Positions 5,291 to 47,000 of a stretch of DNA of 64,000 nucleotides are shown one piece after another. This DNA comes from Yuukianura sp. NJ FZ-2021 (taxonomy: Eukaryota): positions 1,054,001 through 1,118,000 of the forward strand of contig CM102290.1 in assembly GCA_046563655.1 (NCBI GenBank), given 5' to 3'. How positions within the stretch are numbered: position 1 is the first letter of the stretch; every line of letters begins with the position of its first letter. The position numbers were made by a program, and so were the translations under genes. The notes beneath the pieces were generated by a model. That model searched no databases and was not told where the DNA came from. It worked only from the letters and a program-made list of their open reading frames with translations.

Positions 5291-8200
5291 TCTGATCGTA
5301 TGATCAAAAACCTTTTTTTTTTGATGGCGACATTGTGTGGTGATAATGCAAGAAACCAAAAAATCGCTAGAATTCGAACTGGCGTTTACTATATAGGCAG
5401 TGAAAATAGGGGGCGCAGGTTTACCTCAACCTAGTTTTTAAACCTACCTACTAATAGGAAAAATATTTCCCGGGATAAACCTTTCATCGAATGATGAAAT
5501 TTTCCGGAAATTGATACGTGTTTTCTTTTCCGAAAGTATAAATTGTGGTCTCATCGGGTCACAGAACCCGTCCGCTGTGACCTCGACAAAACTAATGAAT
5601 GGAAATCATCTTTAGTTGCTCCTATTTTTGCTAGAGTGATATTAATATGCGAGCTAGAGTTACCCAAGTAATCAACTTTGATTTTTCTGAAACCCCATTC
5701 TTTTATTTTCTCATTTTTCTAATGCCCAGAAAATCTGATCCGAGAAACTATAGTTTCAATCTGAGGTGTGTTTAAAGTCAAGGACTTTCTTCGTTTCTTA
5801 CGAAATATCATCCGAATTTGATAGTCCGATCTCTAAAACATCAAAATATTCGTAATTTCAGAGAAATTTTTTTAGTATCTTGGCGTTTTCTATACAAAAA
5901 AAAAAACTTATGCTTACGCACATCATAAATTTTCTGAATTTGAAGGAATCGGTAGGTAGAAAGGAGCGAATAAAGTAAAATCCTAGTATGGAAGTGTTAA
6001 TGACACTTGTCTAATATTTCATTTTCACCAGAGCTGCAGAGAATCGAATCCAAGCGGCAATAAAAGTGCTTGATTAACGGTTTTTGGCAACAGTCATCTC
6101 ATAAACTGATCGTTCATTTAAAATATGCTACAGTAAAATTTGTGAAATTTTGTTTCAATTTGAAAATTATGATGAGCAGTAGTGTTATAAGGCGAAGATT
6201 TAATTTTTGTTGGTAAACCTGTCATAAGAACTCTCACCATCTTCTAACACAGACGGTTTGTGAGGCCCTCATAAACTTCACTCTGAAATAAATTGCTCAA
6301 GTAGGCAACAACTGAAGGGAGACGCTGAATGGACAAAAATCAGGAAGTCGTGAATTCATTTTTATGCAGAGCAGATGCAATTCATGCAATTTTCAAAAAA
6401 AAAAATCACCAAAGTTAATAGACTAATGTAAAACAAATTGACGATGCACCAGATCATTTTCAATAGAGAAATCATCCCTAATTTGAGAGAAGAAGCTGGA
6501 AGGCTGAAAGACTATAATTCAGTTGCCAATTGATTCATGTACAAAAAGAATATTATAACTTATAGCAATTTTTTCAAAAATCAGTTGAGAATTGAGGTGT
6601 AAAGTGAACTCAAAACAAAATGGTCCAAACTTTTTTTGAAATTGAAAAATTAGGCCAAATTACGATAATTTTGAAAATGTTTTTATACTGTAAAGCAAGT
6701 TATTGTGTCTGTTACAGTTCTGATGCCATTAAAACTATGAGAAACTCAATATGTTTTCCCTTTGTATTGACGTTTGACCAATAAGCCGAAGAAATTACAG
6801 TTTGGAACTCTTGACAAAGTACGCAGCATAAAATCTGAAAACATGTACTATCATTTAGAAAAGGAAAAGTATTTGACACACTTTGATGTTAGTAGTAGTT
6901 TGGCAAGGAAAAATACTTATATAAAAGTACTACATTGAAAACTAAAGTTGGATTTTACCAATGTTCAAAAAGTAGTATGTAGTAATAAGTCTTCCAAGCA
7001 GCATCTAGACTTCCAACCCTGCTTCCTCGAGAAAGTTCTAACAATTTGGAAGGTCTATTAGACGAGATAATAAGCGTGGGAAAATGTGATGTAAAGCGAA
7101 AGAAAATTGGTAGTGAAAGCAAGTTGATTTTAAAAAAGGAAAAACAACAAACGTGTCACGTTGTGTTTTGTTCAGGATATTTCAAATTGAAATTTTTGAC
7201 CGAAGAAATTCAATTCCCAGAAATGATGAAAAGCTCATGTGTGTTGATATGTGTGTCATTTTTTTCTAACAGTACTTGTATACTAATTCAATTTGACGCT
7301 CGTGACGTCTAGACGCTCCGGTACTCTCTGCTCTAATTTATGATCATATTACCATCATTTTCATGTTTCTGATTTTGGTTTATTTTGCAAATTTTTCACA
7401 TGTTTCAAAGTTATTTTACAGTTTTGAATTTATAAAAAAAACGAATTTTAATACTAATTTGGCATTTGTTGTCTCGGACTGAAACTTGATACTTGAGCGT
7501 TCTCCTTGTGTTCTTTTGATGTCTTTGTTAGACGAAATTAGTTGTTTGGACTTATCTCTGTTGTGCATCTGCCATTTTTCATGGAAATTATCGTTTTTGT
7601 GAAACATTTCAAAAATACAAATGAAATGCAGGGTTACTTCATGTGGTGTGTATGTAACATTTGTCAAAACATAAAAAAACTCAAACAATGCTATCTTAAT
7701 TGTATTGTTAGGTAGAGTTGTTTGATGGGTTTATGCTTTGTGACTTGTTACTTCAAAGTGCATCTGCATCAATGCTTCTTAAGTGACCTTTGAACACTCA
7801 TTATTTTACAAATGTCTCCAACTTGTCATTTTCTCAAATTATGAGTATTGTATCTGAAACGATTTTCAGAATTGCAACCACTGCCTGCAGACTTGCAATA
7901 TCGGAATTAAACTTAAGCATTGAAGCATAACTTGTTCGAAATGGAAGCAAGACGAATCTCAGTAATTAGAAAAAAAATTGTCTTCCTTATGTTAATGATT
8001 ACAAAAAAAAAAAAGAAGAAAAGTATTAACATCAAAGAAAGGGCACCAAAGAACATCAAAGATTTTATTTTACTATAGCCCAAGTTGTTGAAATATCACA
8101 AACGGATTATGAATCCCTTGCTAGTGATACATTGTCGATCCACTACAACTGAATATCGCGCTAAATTGTTTAAAGTGTGTGCAGTTAGGAGTTTGTTTTA

Positions 8201-36871: not shown

Positions 36872-39800
36872 ATGTGGACTTTACGTTCTGGACTTGGTGT
36901 ATCTGTTTTCTTATTGAGCATCTTATGCTGCCTTGCAGTAAAGAAAAATCCAAAACCTCCACCATGTGACAGGTAATATAAAGTTCATACAACTATGAAT
37001 TATTTGTATTAATTTTTCGTCTCTTTTCTGATTTTTAGTGCAATTTACTGTCATGGGCCACTTTTGAAAATGGTTCAGTTGAATCATATTTTCAGTGAAG
37101 ACAAAATTTTTGTAGATCTCCCGCTTAAATATTCACCGGAAGAGGTGCTAGCGAACTTTGAAACTTTTAGAAAATCTCATACCAAAGCTCCGAAAAAGGC
37201 TGACATCAAAAAATTTGTTGATGAAAACTTTATTCTCAATGGTACGCCTCTTACGAATAATTTTCAAATTTTTGATTTACTTTCTAATTTTGGAAATTGG
37301 CTTTGTTACTTTTTCCAGGTGAAGAGTTTGAGGCATGGACTCCAGCCGACTGGAAAGAATCTCCAAAGTTTTTGGAAAAAATTGAAAATGCGGAGTTACG
37401 TAAATGGGCGTGGACGCTGAACGGGTTTTGGAAGGATTTAGGCAGAAACATTTCGGGTGACGTTAGAACACGACCGGAACGCTACTCATTGCTACCACTC
37501 ACTCATCCATTTATTGTTCCTGGCGGGAGATTTCGAGAAGTTTACTATTGGGACTCGTACTGGATTCTGCGCGGGCTCCTTCAATCCGAAATGTTTGACA
37601 CAGCCAAGGGCATGATCCAAAATTTCCTGGAATTGGTGGAAAAGAATGGCTTTGTTCCCAATGGTGGACGCATTTATTACCAACGAAGTCAACCGCCAAT
37701 GCTAATTCAAATGGTCAAGTCTTACTTTGATGCCACTTTGGACACGGAGTTTCTTCAGTCCGCCCTTCCAGTTTTGGAAAAGGAATTTACATTCTGGATT
37801 ACTCGTCGAATGATTACAATAGTTTCCGACAAACGGAGGTATTCAGCTGCGAGATACTGCAGTGACCGAAGTGGACCACGCCCAGAAGCTTACAGGTAAG
37901 GTCAAGGTTACTTTAGCACCCACTTATACAAATGCGCTAACAGGTTATGCCATAACTCACTTTTTTCCAAAAAAAAAAATTGCGAAAAAAATTAATTTTT
38001 TACGATTTAACAAACAAAAAAAAACAATTTTTTTAAAACAGGAGATATGGCACAACCTGCTAAGAAAAAACAAAGTTTCGAGTTAAAAAACCTTGGGTAA
38101 GGTAGCACCCTAAAAGCTCGTTTCAAACCAGGGTTCGAAAATTACGGTATTTTTGCCGAAAACTACGTAACTTACGTAATTATCGTAACTTACGTAATCT
38201 ACGTACGATTGTAATTTTTCAAACAAGCCGCCTGCACCCCACTCCCATCCCCAAACCATAAACTATTAATATCTACTATCTAATTGCGTTAAAAATCAAA
38301 CCAAGGCCTGATAGAAATATACTGCGGTAGACAATATTTACTACTATTTTATTTTTAAGACTAAACTAACACACTTAACGCAATTAACACAAATAGTTCG
38401 AGAAACATAACACTAATTATTCCACCGCCATCACATCTAACTCTTCCTCAGGCTCGCAGCTCGCTCTCAACAATTAGACTCTGAAAATATTAAAGTGAAC
38501 ATGACGTACTTGGCCCAATTGATTCGGAGTCTTTGCCAACGTTTTGATGTTTCTGTAAGTGTGATTTCATCCTGTACGGGATTCCTGCATGTCTCCAATC
38601 ACACAACTTACAATTTGCCCAGGGGATCTTACTGCCCGGGTTTGGTTCAAGGTCAAAATCGTTCCAAATCGGATCTCTGACTCGTGGCATTTCAATAACA
38701 GCCAGTTAAAACAACAGAAAGAAAAGCTACGAAGAATATCCTGGTATTTCTCGAGCAGACTGCTCGAGAATTATCCTGGTATTTCTCGAGCAGACTGCTC
38801 GAAGAATATCCTGGTATTTCTCGAGCAGACTGCTCGAAGAATATCCTGGTATTTCTCGAGCAGACTGCTCGAAGAATATCCTGGTATTTCTCGAGCAGAC
38901 TGCTCGAGAATTATCCTGGTATTTCTCGAGCAGACTGCTCGAAGAATATCCTGGTATTTCTCGAGCAGACTGCTCGAAGAATATCCTGGTATTTCTCGAA
39001 CAGACTGCTCGAGAATTATCCTGGTATTTCTCGAGCAGACTGCTCGAAGAATATCCTGGTATTTCTCGAGCAGACTGCTCGAGAATTATCCTGGTATTTC
39101 TCGAGCAGACTGCTCGAAGAATATCCTGGTATTTCTCGAGCAGACTGCTCGAAGAATATCCTGGTATTTCTCGAGCAGACTGCTCGAGAATTATCCTGGT
39201 ATTTCTCGAGCAGACTGCTCGAAGAATATCCTGGTATTTCTCGAGCAGACTGCTCGAAGAATATCCTGGTATTTCTCGAGCAGACTGCTCGAAGAATATC
39301 CTGGTATTTCTCGAGCAGACTGCTCGAGAATTATCCTGGTATTTCTCGAGCAGACTGCTCGAAGAATATCCTGGTATTTCTCGAGCAGACTGCTCGAAGA
39401 ATATCCTGGTATTTCTCGAGCAGACTGCTCGAGAATTATCCTGCTATTTCTCGAGCAGACTGCTCGAAGAATATCCTGGTATTTCTCGAGCAGACTGCTC
39501 GAAGAATATCCTGGTATTTCTCGAGCAGACTGCTCGAGAATTATCCTGGTATTTCTCGAGCAGACTGCTCGAAGAATATCCTGGTATTTCTCGAGCAGAC
39601 TGCTCGAAGAATATCCTGGTATTTCTCGAGCAGACTGCTCGAAGAATATCCTGGTATTTCTCGAGCAGACTGCTCGAAGAATATCCTGGTATTTCTCGAG
39701 CAGACTGCTCGAAGAATATCCTGGTATTTCTCGAGCAGACTGCTCGAAGAATATCCTGGTATTTCTCGAGCAGACTGCTCGAAGAATATCCTGGTATTTC

Positions 39801-41250
39801 TCGAGCAGTCTGCTCGGGAAAAAACCGAAAAAATAAACATCTAAATCACTGCTCTTTTGTTATTTTGGACTTCTCCCGCTCCCCTCACTCCTACGCTGTC
39901 TCCCTCCCGCGTAAAATTCAAAAGAATAAAAATTTCGAAAATTACAACCCCTCTGAAAATTACGTAACTTACGTACGTAAGTTACGTAAGTTACAGGACG
40001 TAAGTTACAGCCTTCGAACCCTGTTTCAAACAGCTTTCTTAAAAAAAAAAGTTGGATTTGTAAATATTTCTTGAAATGTTGGCTTTTTTTTCCTATTCTC
40101 ACAGCAAGGACTACGCATTGGTCAAACCTTACAAAACTAACACGGATAGACAGCATTTGTACACGAACATTCAAAGTGCTGCTGAGAGTGGGTGGGACTT
40201 TTCCTCGAGATGGTACATTCCAGAAGATGAAAATGTCCCAGGTCAATCATAAGCACAAAAATAATAACCAAGTTAATCTATTTTCCTTGAAGTTTAGATT
40301 CAATTTTGTTTTCATTTCAGGAAACAACACTGACACGGACCCTTGCCACATAATTCCAGTGGATCTCAATGCTCTCATGTTCCTCAATGCTCAAACAATG
40401 ACCAAACTCTACTCTCTGGTATGAAGCTTCGTTTTCACTTAAACTTTCAAGCTTTTTAACTGATTCTTAAACGGGTGGATTTGCTGGTAGGCCGGTGATC
40501 TCAGACGAAGCTACGTGTTCATCAAATACGCCGACGACTTTAAGCGTACCCTTCAAAAATTGCTGTGGGACAAGGACCTTGGATCGTACTTTGATTTCGA
40601 CAGAACGAACCACCGCAGAATAACTGACTTCTACGCAAGCTCATTCTTTCCGCTTTGGGCCGGCGTTGACAACACACCAAGTACTGTCAATCAAATGCTC
40701 GGATACTGGCAATCTCAGAAGGTGTTTGACTTTCCTGGAGGAATTCCGACGTCACTGCATAACACAGGTCAGGAGCACCATCCGTACTGTCAATTACTAG
40801 GAAAATAGTAGATTGAAATTTCAAAAAAAAACAATCTAAAAATACATGTATTAAAAATGGTAACAGGTCAACAATGGGACTTACCAAACGGATGGGCACC
40901 ACTGAATCACATTGCGATTGAAGCTCTTGGCAAGTCTGGAAATCCAATTGCCAAAGAGATGGCTGTACAAATTGCACAGAAATGGATTGGGACCAACTAC
41001 AAAGCATTTTATGCTCAAGAACCAAATACCATGTTCGAAAAGGTAAGCTTTAAAATAAATTTTTGGAAATTGGAAAATATTTCAATTTTCTCCACATTGA
41101 AATCATATTTTGCTTTCCCAATAGTATGACGTCACTCAATTCGGTAAGCCTGGAAGTGGAGGTGAGTACACCGTGGTTGCTGGGTTTGGATGGACCAATG
41201 GTGTCGTTCTAGATCTGCTCAGCCAGTACGGCAGCGTCTTGTCTGTTTGA
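36872..41250 (+). CDS. Treh: Trehalase (GH37), secreted/soluble type; exons 36872-36972, 37039-37241, 37319-37895, 40105-40241, 40321-40418, 40491-40767, 40867-41042, 41125-41250
   Basis: Signal peptide; IYCHGPLL, PGGRFREVYYWDSYW, RSQPP, PRPE, AAESGWDFSSRW (catalytic Asp), PVDLN, QWDLPNGWAP and GGEY...GFGWTNG (catalytic Glu). No C-terminal transmembrane segment. Confidence 0.97.
37903..38095 (+). mobile_element. CAAGG-TIR MITE, subfamily A (P-element-like), with 8-bp TSD GGTAAGGT
   Basis: Ends are CAAGGTT / AACCTTG. GGTAAGGT flanks both sides (37895-37902 and 38096-38103). The internal sequence is shared with the 12495 and 57824 copies. Confidence 0.9.
38490..38690 (-). pseudogene. N-terminal BED zinc-finger remnant of a hAT transposase
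   Basis: MPRVRDPIWNDF...ANCKLC...MKSHLQKH has the W-x2-F, CxxC, H-x3-H BED pattern. No catalytic DDE or dimerisation domain follows. Confidence 0.75.
38730..39817. repeat. Tandem minisatellite, 31 x 35 bp (CGAAGAATATCCTGGTATTTCTCGAGCAGACTGCT, variant CGAGAATTATCC...)
   Basis: Read directly from the sequence. Each unit junction forms the palindrome TCGAGCAG-A-CTGCTCGA. No spacers. Confidence 0.98.
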
Positions 41251-43332
41251 CAAACTGGTGTTTGATTTGTAAAATGTAAAAAAAAGTACTTTCTCGAAAT
41301 AAAATTAAAGTTTTGACACTAATTTTTTTTAGTTTATTGAATATAATTCATGAGTTGTGAGATGAGGAGATCAAGTTTACATTTTTGCTAAACTTTATAA
41401 TTGACGCACACATAAAGTTTCATGCACCATTTCTGGAGTGTACCTTTCTCCATCAGGTCTACAAGAATTCTTGACTTTCTTTTTTATAGCGAAAATCTTC
41501 ACAATGTAAAGAGTACAACATGCAATACAACTCTGCTAAACTTAGCTTTAAATAGACGCACAATATCTTAAACTAGCGTCTAGCGTTACTTCTAACATTC
41601 TAGAATAAACTACTCTGTATTTTTAAATTTTCAATTAGCACATTAGTAATAACTTAGCTTTTAGCAATGACAATTTACAGTTACACGTCTATACTGATTT
41701 TGTTTATCACTCTCAATGTTAATACTGACACTTAGAAATGCTTCGATTGAAGACGGAAAATGGGAACTAACATGCAGAAAATCTTCTGAGCCAAAGTCAA
41801 GAAAAAGTTAAGTTAACAAACATATTGTCATGATGCAATTTTGGCTTCGTTTTTTTTTTCAATATTGTCATTTTTTCCATTGTGAAACATCCAAATTTTG
41901 TGAGCCACTTTGAGTCTCAAAAAGAAATTTAGAATTTTCAAATAGAATTTGAACAACTTTTAAAATAGTTTAGGCAGAGCAGATAGTTGCACGTATTGTC
42001 CTCACAAGGGAGCTTTATAAGAGAAAGCTTAGAATTTTTCCCAGTTTTAAAACTCCTAATACCAATTTTTTTCCATTTTGAATTTACAATTAGTCATGGT
42101 TGGGGCATTGTGTTCAAAGGTTTAAAAGCTTGTTAATTTGCTTGTTCGAATTTGTTTGCCTTAGAAATCTAAACTTTACTAATAGTCCCACACCAAATGA
42201 CACTTTATACATTGACGATTCTTAAGGTTTAATTATTGTCAGAAGCAAAAAGTATTTATGAATACTTTTTTGTTTAAAAAAAAGTTTTTCAACGACTAAT
42301 TTTTTTTTAGTTTTAGCAAACTTTTACATTATAAGCTTTACAGCTCACAGTGCTTATACTTTTTTCTTTTAATCTTTTTTGTTGCATTTCTTTCTTTTTT
42401 TTTATGAAGCACTAAAGTTAGTAAGTAGCGCCATAGTGCTCAGAACGTTGGTGAACAAAAAATTTCAAAAACGCGCCAAACATTACGTAAAGAGTTAAGC
42501 AAGCTGCCATTAATCATTTGGGTAAAACGTAACTCACAATTTTCAACTCAAAATTCTTCATCTAAAGATTCGAAGCTCCAAAATAAATCAAGGAAACGGA
42601 AACTTTGTTGTTTTAAATTAAAAATTAAAAAAAAATAAGCACAGGATTATTTGAAAAATAAGACGAAGTTTGCGTTATACTCACACCGTGAGAACAATCG
42701 GAGATCTTGGCTGTACTCCTACACTAAAAGCTTATGCTCTTAACGATTGACTTTGACTAGCATTAAATTAAGTCGAATATTTACATTCATTGGACATCAC
42801 ACTGCACCTTCTTTGTTCTTCTGAATCGAAATTCGAAACAAAGGAGTTTTAAAAAATGTGGGAATATCCTATAAGTTAACTTACCAGTCGGTGCACCACA
42901 ACTAGCCTAACGTAACTAACCTCACATAAGTAACCTAACACCTTAAACCACCAAAAACTTATTGTCTCGGTAAAATGTTAGTGTGCACGATGATTGTTAA
43001 GCAATAAGGGAAACAACCCCGTCATTTGAGCGCTAATTTTAAACATCTCTAAAACAACTTTCTGCTCTGTCGAATGTCACTGGAGTCACCAAACTTTTCA
43101 CTGAAGTGCTTTGCAAATATTGTCACTCAAGACAAGCTCATTCCAGAATTCTCCAAATTCTCCATTTCCACCAGTTTTCATTTAAAAATCGTCCTACATA
43201 AAACTCGTGTTTCAATTTTTTTTGTTAAAAGATGTTACAATTTGTACCGACTCAAGTTGTAACTTCTTCCTTTTAGTAACACGAACGGAATGGAATATAG
43301 TTTTGAATTTTGTAATTTCAAGGTAAAGTACT

Positions 43333-43709
43333 GAAGCCAGAGAAAAGTGCCGACTCGTCCTCTGGCTTCTGTTCTTGACACCTAAGAAATTCAAATTCAA
43401 TTTACAAAAAAAAAGACCTCGTCCCTTGTGGCCATTACAAGAGACGAGCGTCTTTTTCAAAATTTTGAAAAAAAGATACGGTTTTAGCCTGAGTATTTTT
43501 TTTTATCAGTTAAGCTACTAATCCTAACTTATCCCAGTCACACCGAAACTCTATCACACCTTTGGAAAAGCAGAAGGAAGAGAGAAAGTGCCGACCTTTC
43601 TCTCTGCTTTCTCTTCAAATGATTACATACTTTAATGTTTAACATTTTTGTTAAGTAGATTACGGAGGTCATAGAGGTCAGCACTCGTGCCGAGAAGTGC
43701 TGTCCTCTA
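43333..43709 (-). promoter_or_regulatory. Three stem-loops sharing a UCGGCAC loop motif in the presumed exchanger 3' UTR (43333-43369, 43579-43605, 43672-43709)
   Basis: Stems on the + strand are GAAGCCAGAG/CTCTGGCTTC, AGAGAGAAAG/CTTTCTCTCT and TAGAGG-CAGCACT/AGTGCTG-CCTCTA, each enclosing GTGCCGA. Function is inferred. Confidence 0.55.
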
Positions 43710-44013
43710 CGTTAGCTCCAATTCCATATGGAACTTCACAAACAAATGACTTAGGGCAAGAGTTCAATAGCTTGATTCAATAGTTTCAGAACTGACGATG
43801 AGATGAGTAAACATAGTTAGCTCTAGTAAATAGGTTCAAATAACTTAATAATTAAGAGTTTCAAGGGACCTTGTGAGAATGAGCCTCAGTTGTTGAGTCA
43901 GGAGAACTAAAATGTTGATGTTTTTTTTCTGAAAATATGAGGATCATGGTAGCAATTAAAGCGAGGAAAGGAGAAAGGTCAAGGGCATGCTGCTCCCTTA
44001 GTTTGTAGTGTTT

Positions 44014-47000
44014 TTAGTACTTGCTGGGACACTCTGGTGGATTGAACTCGGCGAAGACGTTGAGTTCATAGAGTGATGCGAAAATCATAAAGAACAAGTA
44101 CCAGACCATGAGGATCACACCGTACTTTTTGTCCAGTTTCCATCCATTGTAGTGTGTGGCAATAAGGAGAAAGGCCACTGTTGACAAAAGTGACAGCGTT
44201 GAATACACAAGACCTACGTTGAAAAAAAAAGGATCAAGTTTACCAAAAGTAAAACTGTGTTTACAAAACTTTTTTAAGAAACGGTTCCCAGGAGAAAGGA
44301 GAAAGTAACGTTATGAACTTTGATGGAAGCGATAGGTCATATCTACCGCCATACCACCGTGTATTAATGAGAGTTCCACCACAGAACAGGGGTTCCCCAC
44401 CAATTGATTGTTAATTAGTCTCTGTCACACCTTTGCTATAGACGCGGACTGTTCCTCCTGGATGAATGATAACCGTGGATAGAAACCAGGGTAAACCGAG
44501 GCAGACTAGAATATCAAAGACATTGGATCCCACGGCATTGGAAACAGCCATGTCCCCTTGTCCTGGAATCACAAAGCAAACCATGGCAACGGAATCTGAC
44601 ACTCTCCTTCCAAGTTCACCTTACTCAAGGGTCCTTGACAACGAAGAGTTAATTTTCTTTAACAGGTTGGGTACTACCGCTTGTTGACAGAAAAGTGAAA
44701 AACAAGAACAAAAATTGGTACCAATTTTAGTACCACTCCGAAAAATTGCTACCAATTCTTATGCAAAATTTAAAAAACTCGGCTGTATTATTATGACTAC
44801 GATGTCCTGAAATGAAGACACTTTTTCTTTGCCAAATCAAAAAAAAAATGATGTATTACCCAACCTTTTAAAGAAAATCAAAATCAAGACACCTTGCTTA
44901 CCATCTTTTAATACTGCTAGTGAGGACAGAGCGTCTGGAACGCTGACTCCAGCCGCAACGAAAGTTAACCCCATCACTGTATCTGGAATACCCACGGTGA
45001 AACCTAAAAGGGAACCAGAGACAAATCGGACATAAAACGGCGCAGGCCTAACCAAAACCTAATGAAGTCTTTTCATTGGACAAAACTCTCTCCGGTTTCC
45101 TTTTAGCGGCTACACTCAAAAGCCACTTCAAACAAAATGCTTTGTCTACACAAACTCGTAATTAACTTTCCTTGTCCGTCAAACAACAGTCATTAGTTGG
45201 AGGTCTCGAAGGTCCATAAAGACTGTTTTGGTCACAAGCGCATGCGCCGATTCAACTTACCGACAACAGTTATGGTCCAGACCATGATATAGGAGAAGAT
45301 TGCGATCCAGATCATGGAGATGGTAAAGGTGACGAGGTACCACGTTCGCCACTTGTCCATACGACAGTCGGGTACGGTGTAGTACAGGAGATATACCAGC
45401 GGCAGTGACACGCTCCACAAAAACTTCTTCCAGATGCTGTCACCTTTCGGTGGCTCAAATTGAGACAGAATGGTCTCCATGGGACGTCCATGCACTTTCT
45501 TAGCACCTCCAAACTCTGAAGTTCCTGAACCCAAAATTCCATTAGTGTCACCAGCCCCACTGCGACTAACATTTAAAGCCATCGTCTAAGGGATTGAATA
45601 GGAAGGAGATCGGCATTTGGAGCGCTAGCGGACTGATTGGATTGAAGTAAAGAGGGAATTGGGGATTTCTAGAATAATCCCTATTTACTAAAATGACGCC
45701 AACTTATTTTCATTTTGACGCGTCAAGAGCTAAACTTGCCATGAATCTCTGCATTACGCAGCTCAACGTTCCCTTCCTACCGCTTATTGGGGCTTTGAAA
45801 GCAGAAAAAACCGGGAGAGTTTAAGTTTAAAAAGATAAGATTCTAAGATATCCTGAATACTTGGAAATTCTGAAAGTTTTTTATAGTACTCGGTTTTTAA
45901 AGAAACGTTACACGAGATAGGAATTGGGGAAAATGATTTTAAAAATTCATTTTAAAAGTTTTTTTTTCAAAGGTTTCAGTTAGTTTACACCTTTTGTCGT
46001 GTAACAGGATAGTAACAACATCAAGGAAAATTTTAAAGCTTCTAAAAAAATTTAAAATATGAGTGCAAAAGTAGTACAGAAAAACATTTTTTTTTGATTC
46101 AACTCTATTTGAACTCTATGTGGTTACTTCTTATACGATTAGTTTTTTTTTTGACAAAATCCGTAAATCTGTTTGATATTTTTTTTATCCCAAGATATTG
46201 ACTGCTTGGCAACACCAATCAAAGCAAAGGAAAGGTGCTCCTTCCTGTGATGTACGTTAAACGAAAGCATGCACCTTAAATCCGAAAGGTGTAGGAAATT
46301 TTCAGATACAAAAAAACTACTTTCTCCATGTCCTACCATATCATTCGTTACTTTCTTTTGTAAAGAAAAACTCCCGAATTTGTGTCGTTGCCTAGAGATG
46401 TTTTCTTTTGTGAAAAATGGGCCTAAACTTTTCTTTTCTAGAAACTTGGAAAATTTATGGGACGCGTAAAGTTTTTGACTAGAAAACAAATTTGGATTTG
46501 AAACATAATTTTCGTTTTCTTCTACATACCAGCAGCCATACTTTCGTTTTTTTCGTCCAATCCGCTCTCCTCTCCTTCGGTGGACTTGTAAGTGACAACT
46601 TGGGCACTGGCGTTCTGGAGTTCCTTGGATTCACTGCTTGCCACTTGCGGAACGTGGACGGGAAATGGAACGGGCAGAGTGTTAGCCCAGGCTTCAAGCA
46701 AATCATTGATGTACATCACGTAGCAGTAGACGCCATAGAGCAGGAGCAGAATAATTGATTCATACCTATCGAAACCAAAGAACTGGGCATCTCAATCCTG
46801 TTTTCAGTTTTGAACAACACTCCCATGTCGTCACGTTCCTAACTAGGACGCAAAGGTCCACCAGCCAACGAGGAACATGGCAACTTTCTCTCTCCTTTGA
46901 ACTGCTTAAATAATGGTCTCGAATTTTTCGTCCTTGTTAGTTGCAAATCGTTAAAAGAAAACAGTTTTTCAAAATCGTAATTTGATGTATCTACTGTCGT

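Follow-up and report, generated by a model that had tools for sequence, protein, structure and literature searches.

The exchanger gene and its surroundings

The window, by which we mean the whole 64,000-nucleotide stretch of DNA analysed here, carries on its minus strand the last coding exon (44014-44213) of a CG1090-type K+-dependent Na+/Ca2+ exchanger (NCKX), recognised by its translation, its homologs and domain PF01699 and ending in a TAA stop at 44014-44016. This exon is matched by 88 homologs, many of them named CG1090. A 47-row tree places the protein with those of Allacma and Orchesella (support 100/98), which makes a springtail the most likely source animal; no solved structure matched the exon. 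The exon, which lies upstream of the hairpins described below, bears out the view of an earlier note on this DNA that the host mRNA encodes a Ca2+ exchanger. Genes of the Na+/Ca2+-exchanger family also form a tandem cluster at G000:C4:12261871-12290594 (minus strand), with no hairpin array found nearby.

A convergent trehalase gene on the plus strand (stop and polyadenylation signal within 41248-41303) lies outside the element. Its stop codon occupies 41248-41250 and an AATAAA follows at 41298, 48 nt past the stop. We considered, and rejected, an assignment of the hairpins to the trehalase UTR; this AATAAA lies ~1.9 kb before the nearest hairpin and the trehalase gene is absent from the 4 kb downstream of CG1090 in one of the orthologous loci (L022, see below). 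A trehalase intron also holds a 35-bp tandem array (38727-39830) with a palindromic core and inverted-repeat-like ends.

Five hairpins with a common loop

Five hairpins lie 305-780 nt downstream of the CG1090 stop, all within 480 nt and on the minus strand. Three of them had been proposed in the earlier note and were found at the claimed sites, each with UCGGCAC at its apex and each folding better than dinucleotide shuffles, against which all z-scores of folding energy were taken: hairpin a (43672-43709, with CUCGGCAC in the loop and the 7-mer at 43688-43694; z -3.8), hairpin b (43579-43605, 7-nt loop GUCGGCA at 43589-43595; z -2.2) and hairpin d (43333-43369, loop (G)UCGGCA(C) at 43348-43354; z -4.0). 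Two further members, absent from that first reading, complete the set, namely hairpin c (43409-43458, 7-nt loop AAUGGCC at 43430-43436; z -6.0) and hairpin e (43234-43263, 8-nt loop AGUCGGUA, 7-mer at 43245-43251; z -4.2). The loop abuts the 3' arm directly in most copies, and the last base of UCGGCAC is often the closing base; as the final C also varies in relatives (C, A, G or U), the conserved loop word is better given as (G)UCGGCA.

The heptamer UCGGCAC is not enriched across the window (4 matches against 2.5 expected, a count reached by 28 of 100 shuffles). Strong hairpins in which a YGGYM core is unpaired, a motif defined post hoc after inspecting the loops, number five in 1,253 nt, where the shuffle mean is 0.02 and none of 200 shuffles reaches five; the other 124.8 kb of the window, both strands counted, hold 14. 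Folding on the mRNA strand is favoured in 10 of the 15 CG1090 hairpins compared (mean -1.6 kcal/mol), the other five folding as well or better on the opposite strand, and a hand count of the pair table gives 12 G-U pairs against 6 A-C mismatches on the mRNA strand. Two details of the first reading need softening: the stems, described as unrelated, are so for most pairs of hairpins, but b and d have common arm sequence (score 8; 15 of 300 shuffles), and the extra G-U pairs, said to form only on the mRNA strand, fit a, c and d, which fold better there, whereas b and e do the opposite.

Conservation and compensatory change in relatives

Orthologs were sampled in one metagenome scan that yielded 35 CG1090 loci, three of which (L020, L021 and L022) fall in the springtail clade. 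L020 is 94% identical to the window in the last exon and is probably a cDNA, because it is without the last intron found in the window, L021 and L022 (the alternative being intron loss). It has all five hairpins with their order kept and with the loops of c and e letter-identical. The L021 contig stops after hairpin a, the one hairpin kept there, and L022, which groups with Orchesella, has hairpins a, b and d together with a CGGCCG-loop hairpin and weaker sites. The observed number of hairpins was reached by none of 200 shuffles for L020 and none of 100 for L022, and hairpins a and b lie 99, 110 and 112 nt apart in the three species compared.

In hairpin a, 3 of 13 pair positions have changed on both sides in each of three ortholog comparisons, and in hairpin d both-sided changes affect 6 of 13 pair positions relative to L020 (relative to L022, the homology of its columns is uncertain). 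Double-sided changes number two in hairpin e, one in c and none in b, and the closing pair of hairpin c is U-G in L020 in place of U-A. When 16 hairpins from the four species (window, L020, L021 and L022) were aligned without gaps, 59.6% of cells paired, compared with 40.1% after shuffling and 39-50% in slid registers, a figure that measures pairing rather than column homology. The set retains a weak L022 hairpin at 5406 (z 0.2); three candidates (L020 380, L020 655 and L022 4785) were dropped because their motif lies outside stable loops.

The 3' region of springtail CG1090 genes thus holds about five hairpins whose stems drift yet still pair and at whose apex (G)UCGGCA, or a variant of it with a C-to-U change, is retained. 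Neutrality is excluded by the conserved order of the hairpins and the compensation in their stems, and the earlier proposal of selection on structure plus loop is upheld by conservation and compensatory stem changes in three relatives. The array is very probably a functional RNA element of the CG1090 mRNA. A microRNA precursor, in which a stem arm is conserved, the loop varies and the length is about 60-70 nt, was rejected, as fixed loops on variable stems are the opposite pattern.

In the other 32 of the 35 loci (termite-like, copepod-like, mollusc-like and unplaced), the array was not found among the output shown for 1-4,000 nt downstream, and long UTRs may extend past these flanks. Two partial resemblances were set aside: a single GUAGGCA hairpin of termite-like loci, which has a more stable competing fold in L023 and does not occur in all of them, and a sequence in L019 resembling hairpin d, which lies antisense within a coding exon.

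Position of the array in the 3' UTR

The contig of the intron-less L020 ortholog runs through the array, so that the hairpins would lie within the mRNA, as the earlier note had assumed. Several conserved linear boxes, all on the minus strand, surround them. Box AGCTATTGAACTC (43760-43772), just upstream of hairpin a, is found in the window, L020 and L021 and not in L022, whereas TGACAATATT (43116-43125) is common to the window, L020 and L022. Farther downstream, within 42778-42810, the boxes AAGGTGCAGTGTGAT (42796-42810) and TGTAAATA (42778-42785) keep the same order in the window, L020 and L022. These two distal boxes probably indicate how far the 3' UTR continues past the hairpins, and their presence in all three sequences places the array inside it. 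An ATTAAA at 43631-43636 (minus strand), between hairpins a and b and at a position not kept in L020, could yield a short isoform carrying hairpin a alone.

We take TGTAAATA to be a Pumilio site. The box TGACAATATT contains GACAATA, presumably a miR-1000 seed match, which occurs twice in the window (minus strand, 42960-42966 and inside 43116-43125), twice in L020 and three times in L022, as well as three times downstream of the Gad1 gene described below (L164; +1059, +1173 and +1683 past the stop). If it is a miR-1000 match, its presence in the 3' regions of both CG1090 and Gad1 would point to their co-regulation.

Searches for further copies

No Rfam family matched the window at gathering score, in keeping with the claim that the element is undescribed, and at E<=1 the four loci searched gave a single chance-level match, to a miRNA (E 0.66). 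A covariance model (R1) was built from the 16 hairpins and holds 0.43 bits per position. It detects 13 of the 16 hairpins on which it was trained, and scans of 207 kb and 80 kb gave no new match scoring more than 16.1 and 14.2 bits, respectively; the model is weak, and this absence of further matches is accordingly soft. Across 374 kb drawn from paralogs of the exchanger, 3' regions of Imp and other stretches, 32 scattered weak matches and no array were found.

The genome-wide pattern RRRR-GTCGGCAC-YYYY gave 26 matches, 17 of which belong to a single dispersed repeat that forms no long stem. This repeat, which carries RAAAGTCGGCACTYTT, is at least 400 bp long and 77-100% identical among its copies (L086, L087, L089, L091, L092, L094, L097-L101, L104-L106 and L108-L110). 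A triple-motif search of the genome was swamped by satellites, and a paired-motif search gave 70 matches, with no third array among 50 examined plus the two known arrays, at CG1090 and Gad1. Palindromic, MITE-like repeats rich in GAGTCG/CGACTC carry TCGGYAC near their apex (L004 970-1130 and 1490-1645; L009). Apart from this GAGTCG repeat, multi-copy apical arrays were seen at CG1090 and Gad1 only, among 1,196 distinct UCGGYA/URCCGA contexts from 210 loci of the same genome, a biased sample.

Complementary loops downstream of Gad1

The Gad1 gene of this genome (GAD1 match E 2.5e-36; L164) sits on a different contig from CG1090. Three hairpins (G1-G3) follow its stop at +197, +343 and +737, with energies of -24.6, -20.2 and -22.8 kcal/mol, respectively, and the loop of every one of them is UGCCGAC. 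This loop and GUCGGCA, the dominant loop of CG1090, are exact reverse complements, a link that was recognised after the fact, and among all 16,384 7-mers GUCGGCA is the only one to pair so stably with UGCCGAC (-11.2 kcal/mol). Eight of the 16 CG1090 loops pair with it at all seven positions by Watson-Crick pairs and two more do so with one wobble; the remainder pair at six (two loops), five (two) or four (two) of seven positions, hairpin c over 4 nt only (-4.9 kcal/mol). The central four pairs are kept in all 16 loops, with an invariant GG facing CC, and the two positions opposite G carry C (14) or U (2), so that the sole changes are C-to-U. Transitions are the commonest mutations, and the variants represent only two independent events; the pattern is thus consistent with pairing but weak. 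No compensatory changes linking the CG1090 loops to the Gad1 loops were seen, the former barely varying across four species and the latter coming from one genome. Complementary sites for the loop that lie inside CG1090 are not conserved.

Folding models predict that most of these loops are available for pairing. The probability that the 7-mer is unpaired is predicted at 0.72-0.95 in four of the five CG1090 loops and two of the three Gad1 loops, the regional medians being 0.04 and 0.06, respectively, whereas loops d and G3 are predicted to be partly closed (0.02), and the L020 values are 0.33 for a and 0.09 for b. In all 15 CG1090-Gad1 pairings, no extended duplex is predicted to beat the state with two hairpins. 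G1 folds far better on the mRNA strand (-24.6 against -13.7 kcal/mol), and G2 and G3 fold as well or better on the opposite one, so that the strand bias is modest.

The loop match suggests, without proving, that the CG1090 and Gad1 messages pair, and we put the probability that they join by reversible loop-loop kissing at roughly 45%. The earlier note had proposed a selected, undescribed 3' UTR element that is read by an RNA-binding protein; conservation and the Rfam result support its first part, and a protein reader is not established. Given the exact complementarity to the Gad1 loops, RNA-RNA pairing is therefore at least as likely as such a reader. The CG1090 loops would form the key and the three post-stop Gad1 hairpins the lock, and several 7-bp kisses would reversibly tether the two mRNAs wherever they occur together, while the stems stay closed. 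Kissing could thereby co-package or co-localise the mRNAs that serve GABA synthesis and Ca2+ extrusion; alternatively, it could couple their translation or decay.

Competing explanations

A reverse-complement relation would also arise without any RNA-RNA pairing if a single strand-independent element, be it a DNA hairpin, a protein site or a structure in an antisense transcript, stood in opposite orientations after the two genes. The five of 15 CG1090 hairpins and two of three Gad1 hairpins that fold as well or better on the opposite strand fit this idea, but the stems are imperfect and bulged and G-U pairs outnumber A-C mismatches by 12 to 6. Moreover, within each gene all copies face one direction, across the four species; the array is included in the intron-less L020 sequence; and the convergent trehalase gene has its AATAAA 48 nt past the stop and is missing from the 4 kb downstream in L022. 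We regard a strand-independent element as quite improbable.

The kissing interaction might instead be homotypic. GUCGGC is self-complementary with two G-U pairs, and CG1090 mRNAs could dimerise or cluster in the manner of oskar, which provides a precedent in the available text of PMC13549266. The self-duplex of GUCGGCA (-9.7 kcal/mol) ranks in the top 0.9% of all 7-mers and the top 7% of those with the same composition, and L022 has one perfect CGGCCG loop. Against this, self-pairing is lost in the loops of e, of a in the window and of a in L022 (-1.5 to -2.1 kcal/mol), none of the 16 loops has become one of the stronger perfect palindromes that lie one change away, and pairing with the Gad1 loop beats self-pairing in 14 of 16. 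Homotypic kissing is consequently very improbable.

Among protein readers, the best-defined candidate is Imp/IGF2BP, whose KH1 or KH4 domain would read a stem-exposed GGC core, multivalent binding then localising or stabilising the mRNA. UCGGCAC is a 7-mer ligand of IMP3 KH1 in NMR and ITC, and in SELEX with full-length IMP3 the ranks among 4,096 hexamers are 3 for CGGCAC, 5 for ACGGCA, 11 for GGCATC, 13 for GTCGGC, 24 for TCGGCA, 41 for CGGCAA and 61 for CGGCAG, the words of hairpins a, b and d ranking 3-61 (PMC6531468, available sections). By hand count, GTCGGCAC is among just 25 of 65,536 octamers whose three hexamers all rank within the top 29. An Imp gene is present in the genome (G000:C6:3017935-3019706), with a well-conserved KH1 (E 1.7e-30 to IGF2BP3) and a KH4 (E 1.3e-09) whose variable loop is longer. 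In the passages available, KH4 of the IMP family reads GG with non-G flanks, its specificity residing in the variable loop (PMC6768852), and IMP1 KH1 reads CNG (PMC6486635). A possible second Imp-like KH gene lies at G000:C3:10364268-10364807 (plus strand), and a PCBP/hnRNP-K-like gene with an inverted duplicate at G000:C5:10483393 and 10670077.

A GGC-core word (CGGC or GGCA) is present in 12 of the 16 loops. Hairpins c and e (four loops) are without one, and the conserved words of their loops rank low (TGGCCG 639, TGGCCA 734, ATGGCC 964, TCGGTA 1081 and CGGTAC 1517). No CA-rich tetramer stands at a conserved distance across the orthologs, although a spacing of ~15-25 nt would be required. 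In the accessible portions of the literature, KH proteins bound linear motifs only in HTR-SELEX (PMC7397871), fly Imp iCLIP motifs are UA- and CA-rich, with no mention of GGC (PMC4477473), and the 7-mer UCGGCAC derives from a designed 101-mer (PMC6531468). Docking of Imp would furthermore leave the complementary Gad1 loops unexplained, and we consider it unlikely.

Some other protein, or an RNA-modifying enzyme, might read the loop as YGGYM, much as METTL16 does with the MAT2A hairpins and IRP with the iron-responsive elements of TfR1, the Gad1 complement being a matter of chance or a trace of shared origin. The layout, a 3' UTR cluster of hairpins with a fixed loop and free stems, matches that of MAT2A hp1-6 (as far as described in the available text of PMC10578476), the loop is flush with the 3' arm in most copies, and in most stem-loop readers specificity comes from the loop (PMC7397871, available text). 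However, an exact 7-nt complement is expected by chance in about 1 in 16,384 pairs of arrays, and no candidate loop reader was identified. We consider this explanation distinctly unlikely.

Three further readings have been largely refuted and together retain a very slim chance. A neutral relic of the GAGTCG repeat family, which carries TCGGYAC, is excluded by the conserved order and compensated stems, and UCGG is largely paired in that family. Loops of 7 nt in which NGG occupies positions 3-5 are reminiscent of the anticodon loops of tRNA-Pro, but position 37 of a tRNA is a purine, whereas the base after GG in the CG1090 loops is a pyrimidine. The GG of the loop likewise recalls the CNGG of a Smaug element, and a variant of that element could be imagined; the base two positions before GG is, however, U in 13, A in 3 and C in none of the 16 loops. 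The earlier conclusion that this is not a Smaug recognition element is sound for this very reason, as the definition requires a C there (PMC4053848, available text).

Significance of a possible mRNA-mRNA pairing

The array is real, conserved and uncatalogued, and its most likely mechanism would be loop-loop pairing with Gad1 mRNA. It is possible, if rather less than an even prospect, that springtail neurons join the Gad1 and CG1090 mRNAs by a complementary-loop code, so that a single particle holds both for shared transport or control, an arrangement kept across deep springtail lineages. For fly CG1090, published reports describe presence in R5 and sensory neurons (bioRxiv 10.1101/2021.10.22.465404 and PMC10335707) and enrichment in the lamina (PMC9604546); the available text of these three sources yielded no GABAergic expression of CG1090 or co-expression with Gad1.

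A pairing of this kind would bear on whether specific mRNA-mRNA pairing between genes organises animal RNA granules, and the reviews PMC11499389, PMC13467057 and PMC7397151 name, in their available sections, no kissing between two unrelated mRNAs. If true, pairing between CG1090 and Gad1 would constitute a natural, multivalent, heterotypic mRNA-mRNA kissing system; even with a protein reader, the array would represent an uncatalogued, covariation-supported family of 3' UTR elements in an animal. We found no description of the element in the literature on UCGGCAC stem-loops, CG1090, Collembola UTR structure and mRNA-mRNA kissing, a search beyond which most subscription journals lie.

Comparison with known systems

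Iron-responsive elements (IREs) are defined by a CAGUGN loop with a bulged C, and the 3' UTR of the transferrin receptor (TfR1) has five such hairpins, with a fixed loop read by IRP. The CG1090 array likewise has five hairpins in a 3' UTR and a fixed loop; its loops differ from CAGUGN and have no Rfam IRE match, so that the earlier note was right to distinguish it from an IRE. The hairpin loops of MAT2A are of the UACAGAGAA type, a sequence different from that of the CG1090 loops, and the CG1090 array has no Rfam match. The likeness lies in the clustering, within a 3' UTR, of five to six conserved hairpins that work jointly; those of MAT2A (hp1-6) are read by METTL16 (PMC10578476, available text). 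The Smaug recognition element, whose 4-8-nt loop begins CNGG (CNGGN0-4), shares a GG loop, a sequence-free stem and the presence of several copies (PMC4053848, in part), whereas its invariant C is missing from all 16 CG1090 loops. IMP3/IGF2BP3 elements have the words UCGGCAC, CGGCA and GTCGGC in common with the array and also form 3' UTR clusters, but these sites are linear, with a CA-rich element 15-25 nt off, whereas the CG1090 words stand in stem-loops without a conserved CA partner (PMC6531468, in part), and two conserved CG1090 hairpins use low-ranked words.

Closer parallels are found among kissing RNAs. The dimerisation palindrome of the oskar 3' UTR and the SL1/DIS of HIV-1 pair with themselves, linking copies of a single RNA; in common with them, the CG1090 array presents a GC-rich word of 6-7 nt at the apex of stems in the 3' UTR, where pairing in trans would be possible (PMC13549266, available text). 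Their palindrome of 6 nt is perfect, whereas that of the CG1090 loop is a wobble palindrome, perfect in one of 16 loops, and the best partner of CG1090 is another mRNA, that of Gad1, with five loops facing three. RNAI and RNAII of ColE1 are the sense and antisense products of one locus and proceed to a full duplex. They are similar in that two distinct hairpins have fully complementary 7-nt loops, but CG1090 and Gad1 lie on different contigs, their loops alone match and no extended duplex is favoured. One feature of a heterotypic kissing pair, namely two sets of hairpins with complementary loops, is found here in GUCGGCA and UGCCGAC, which match by Watson-Crick pairs at seven of seven positions.
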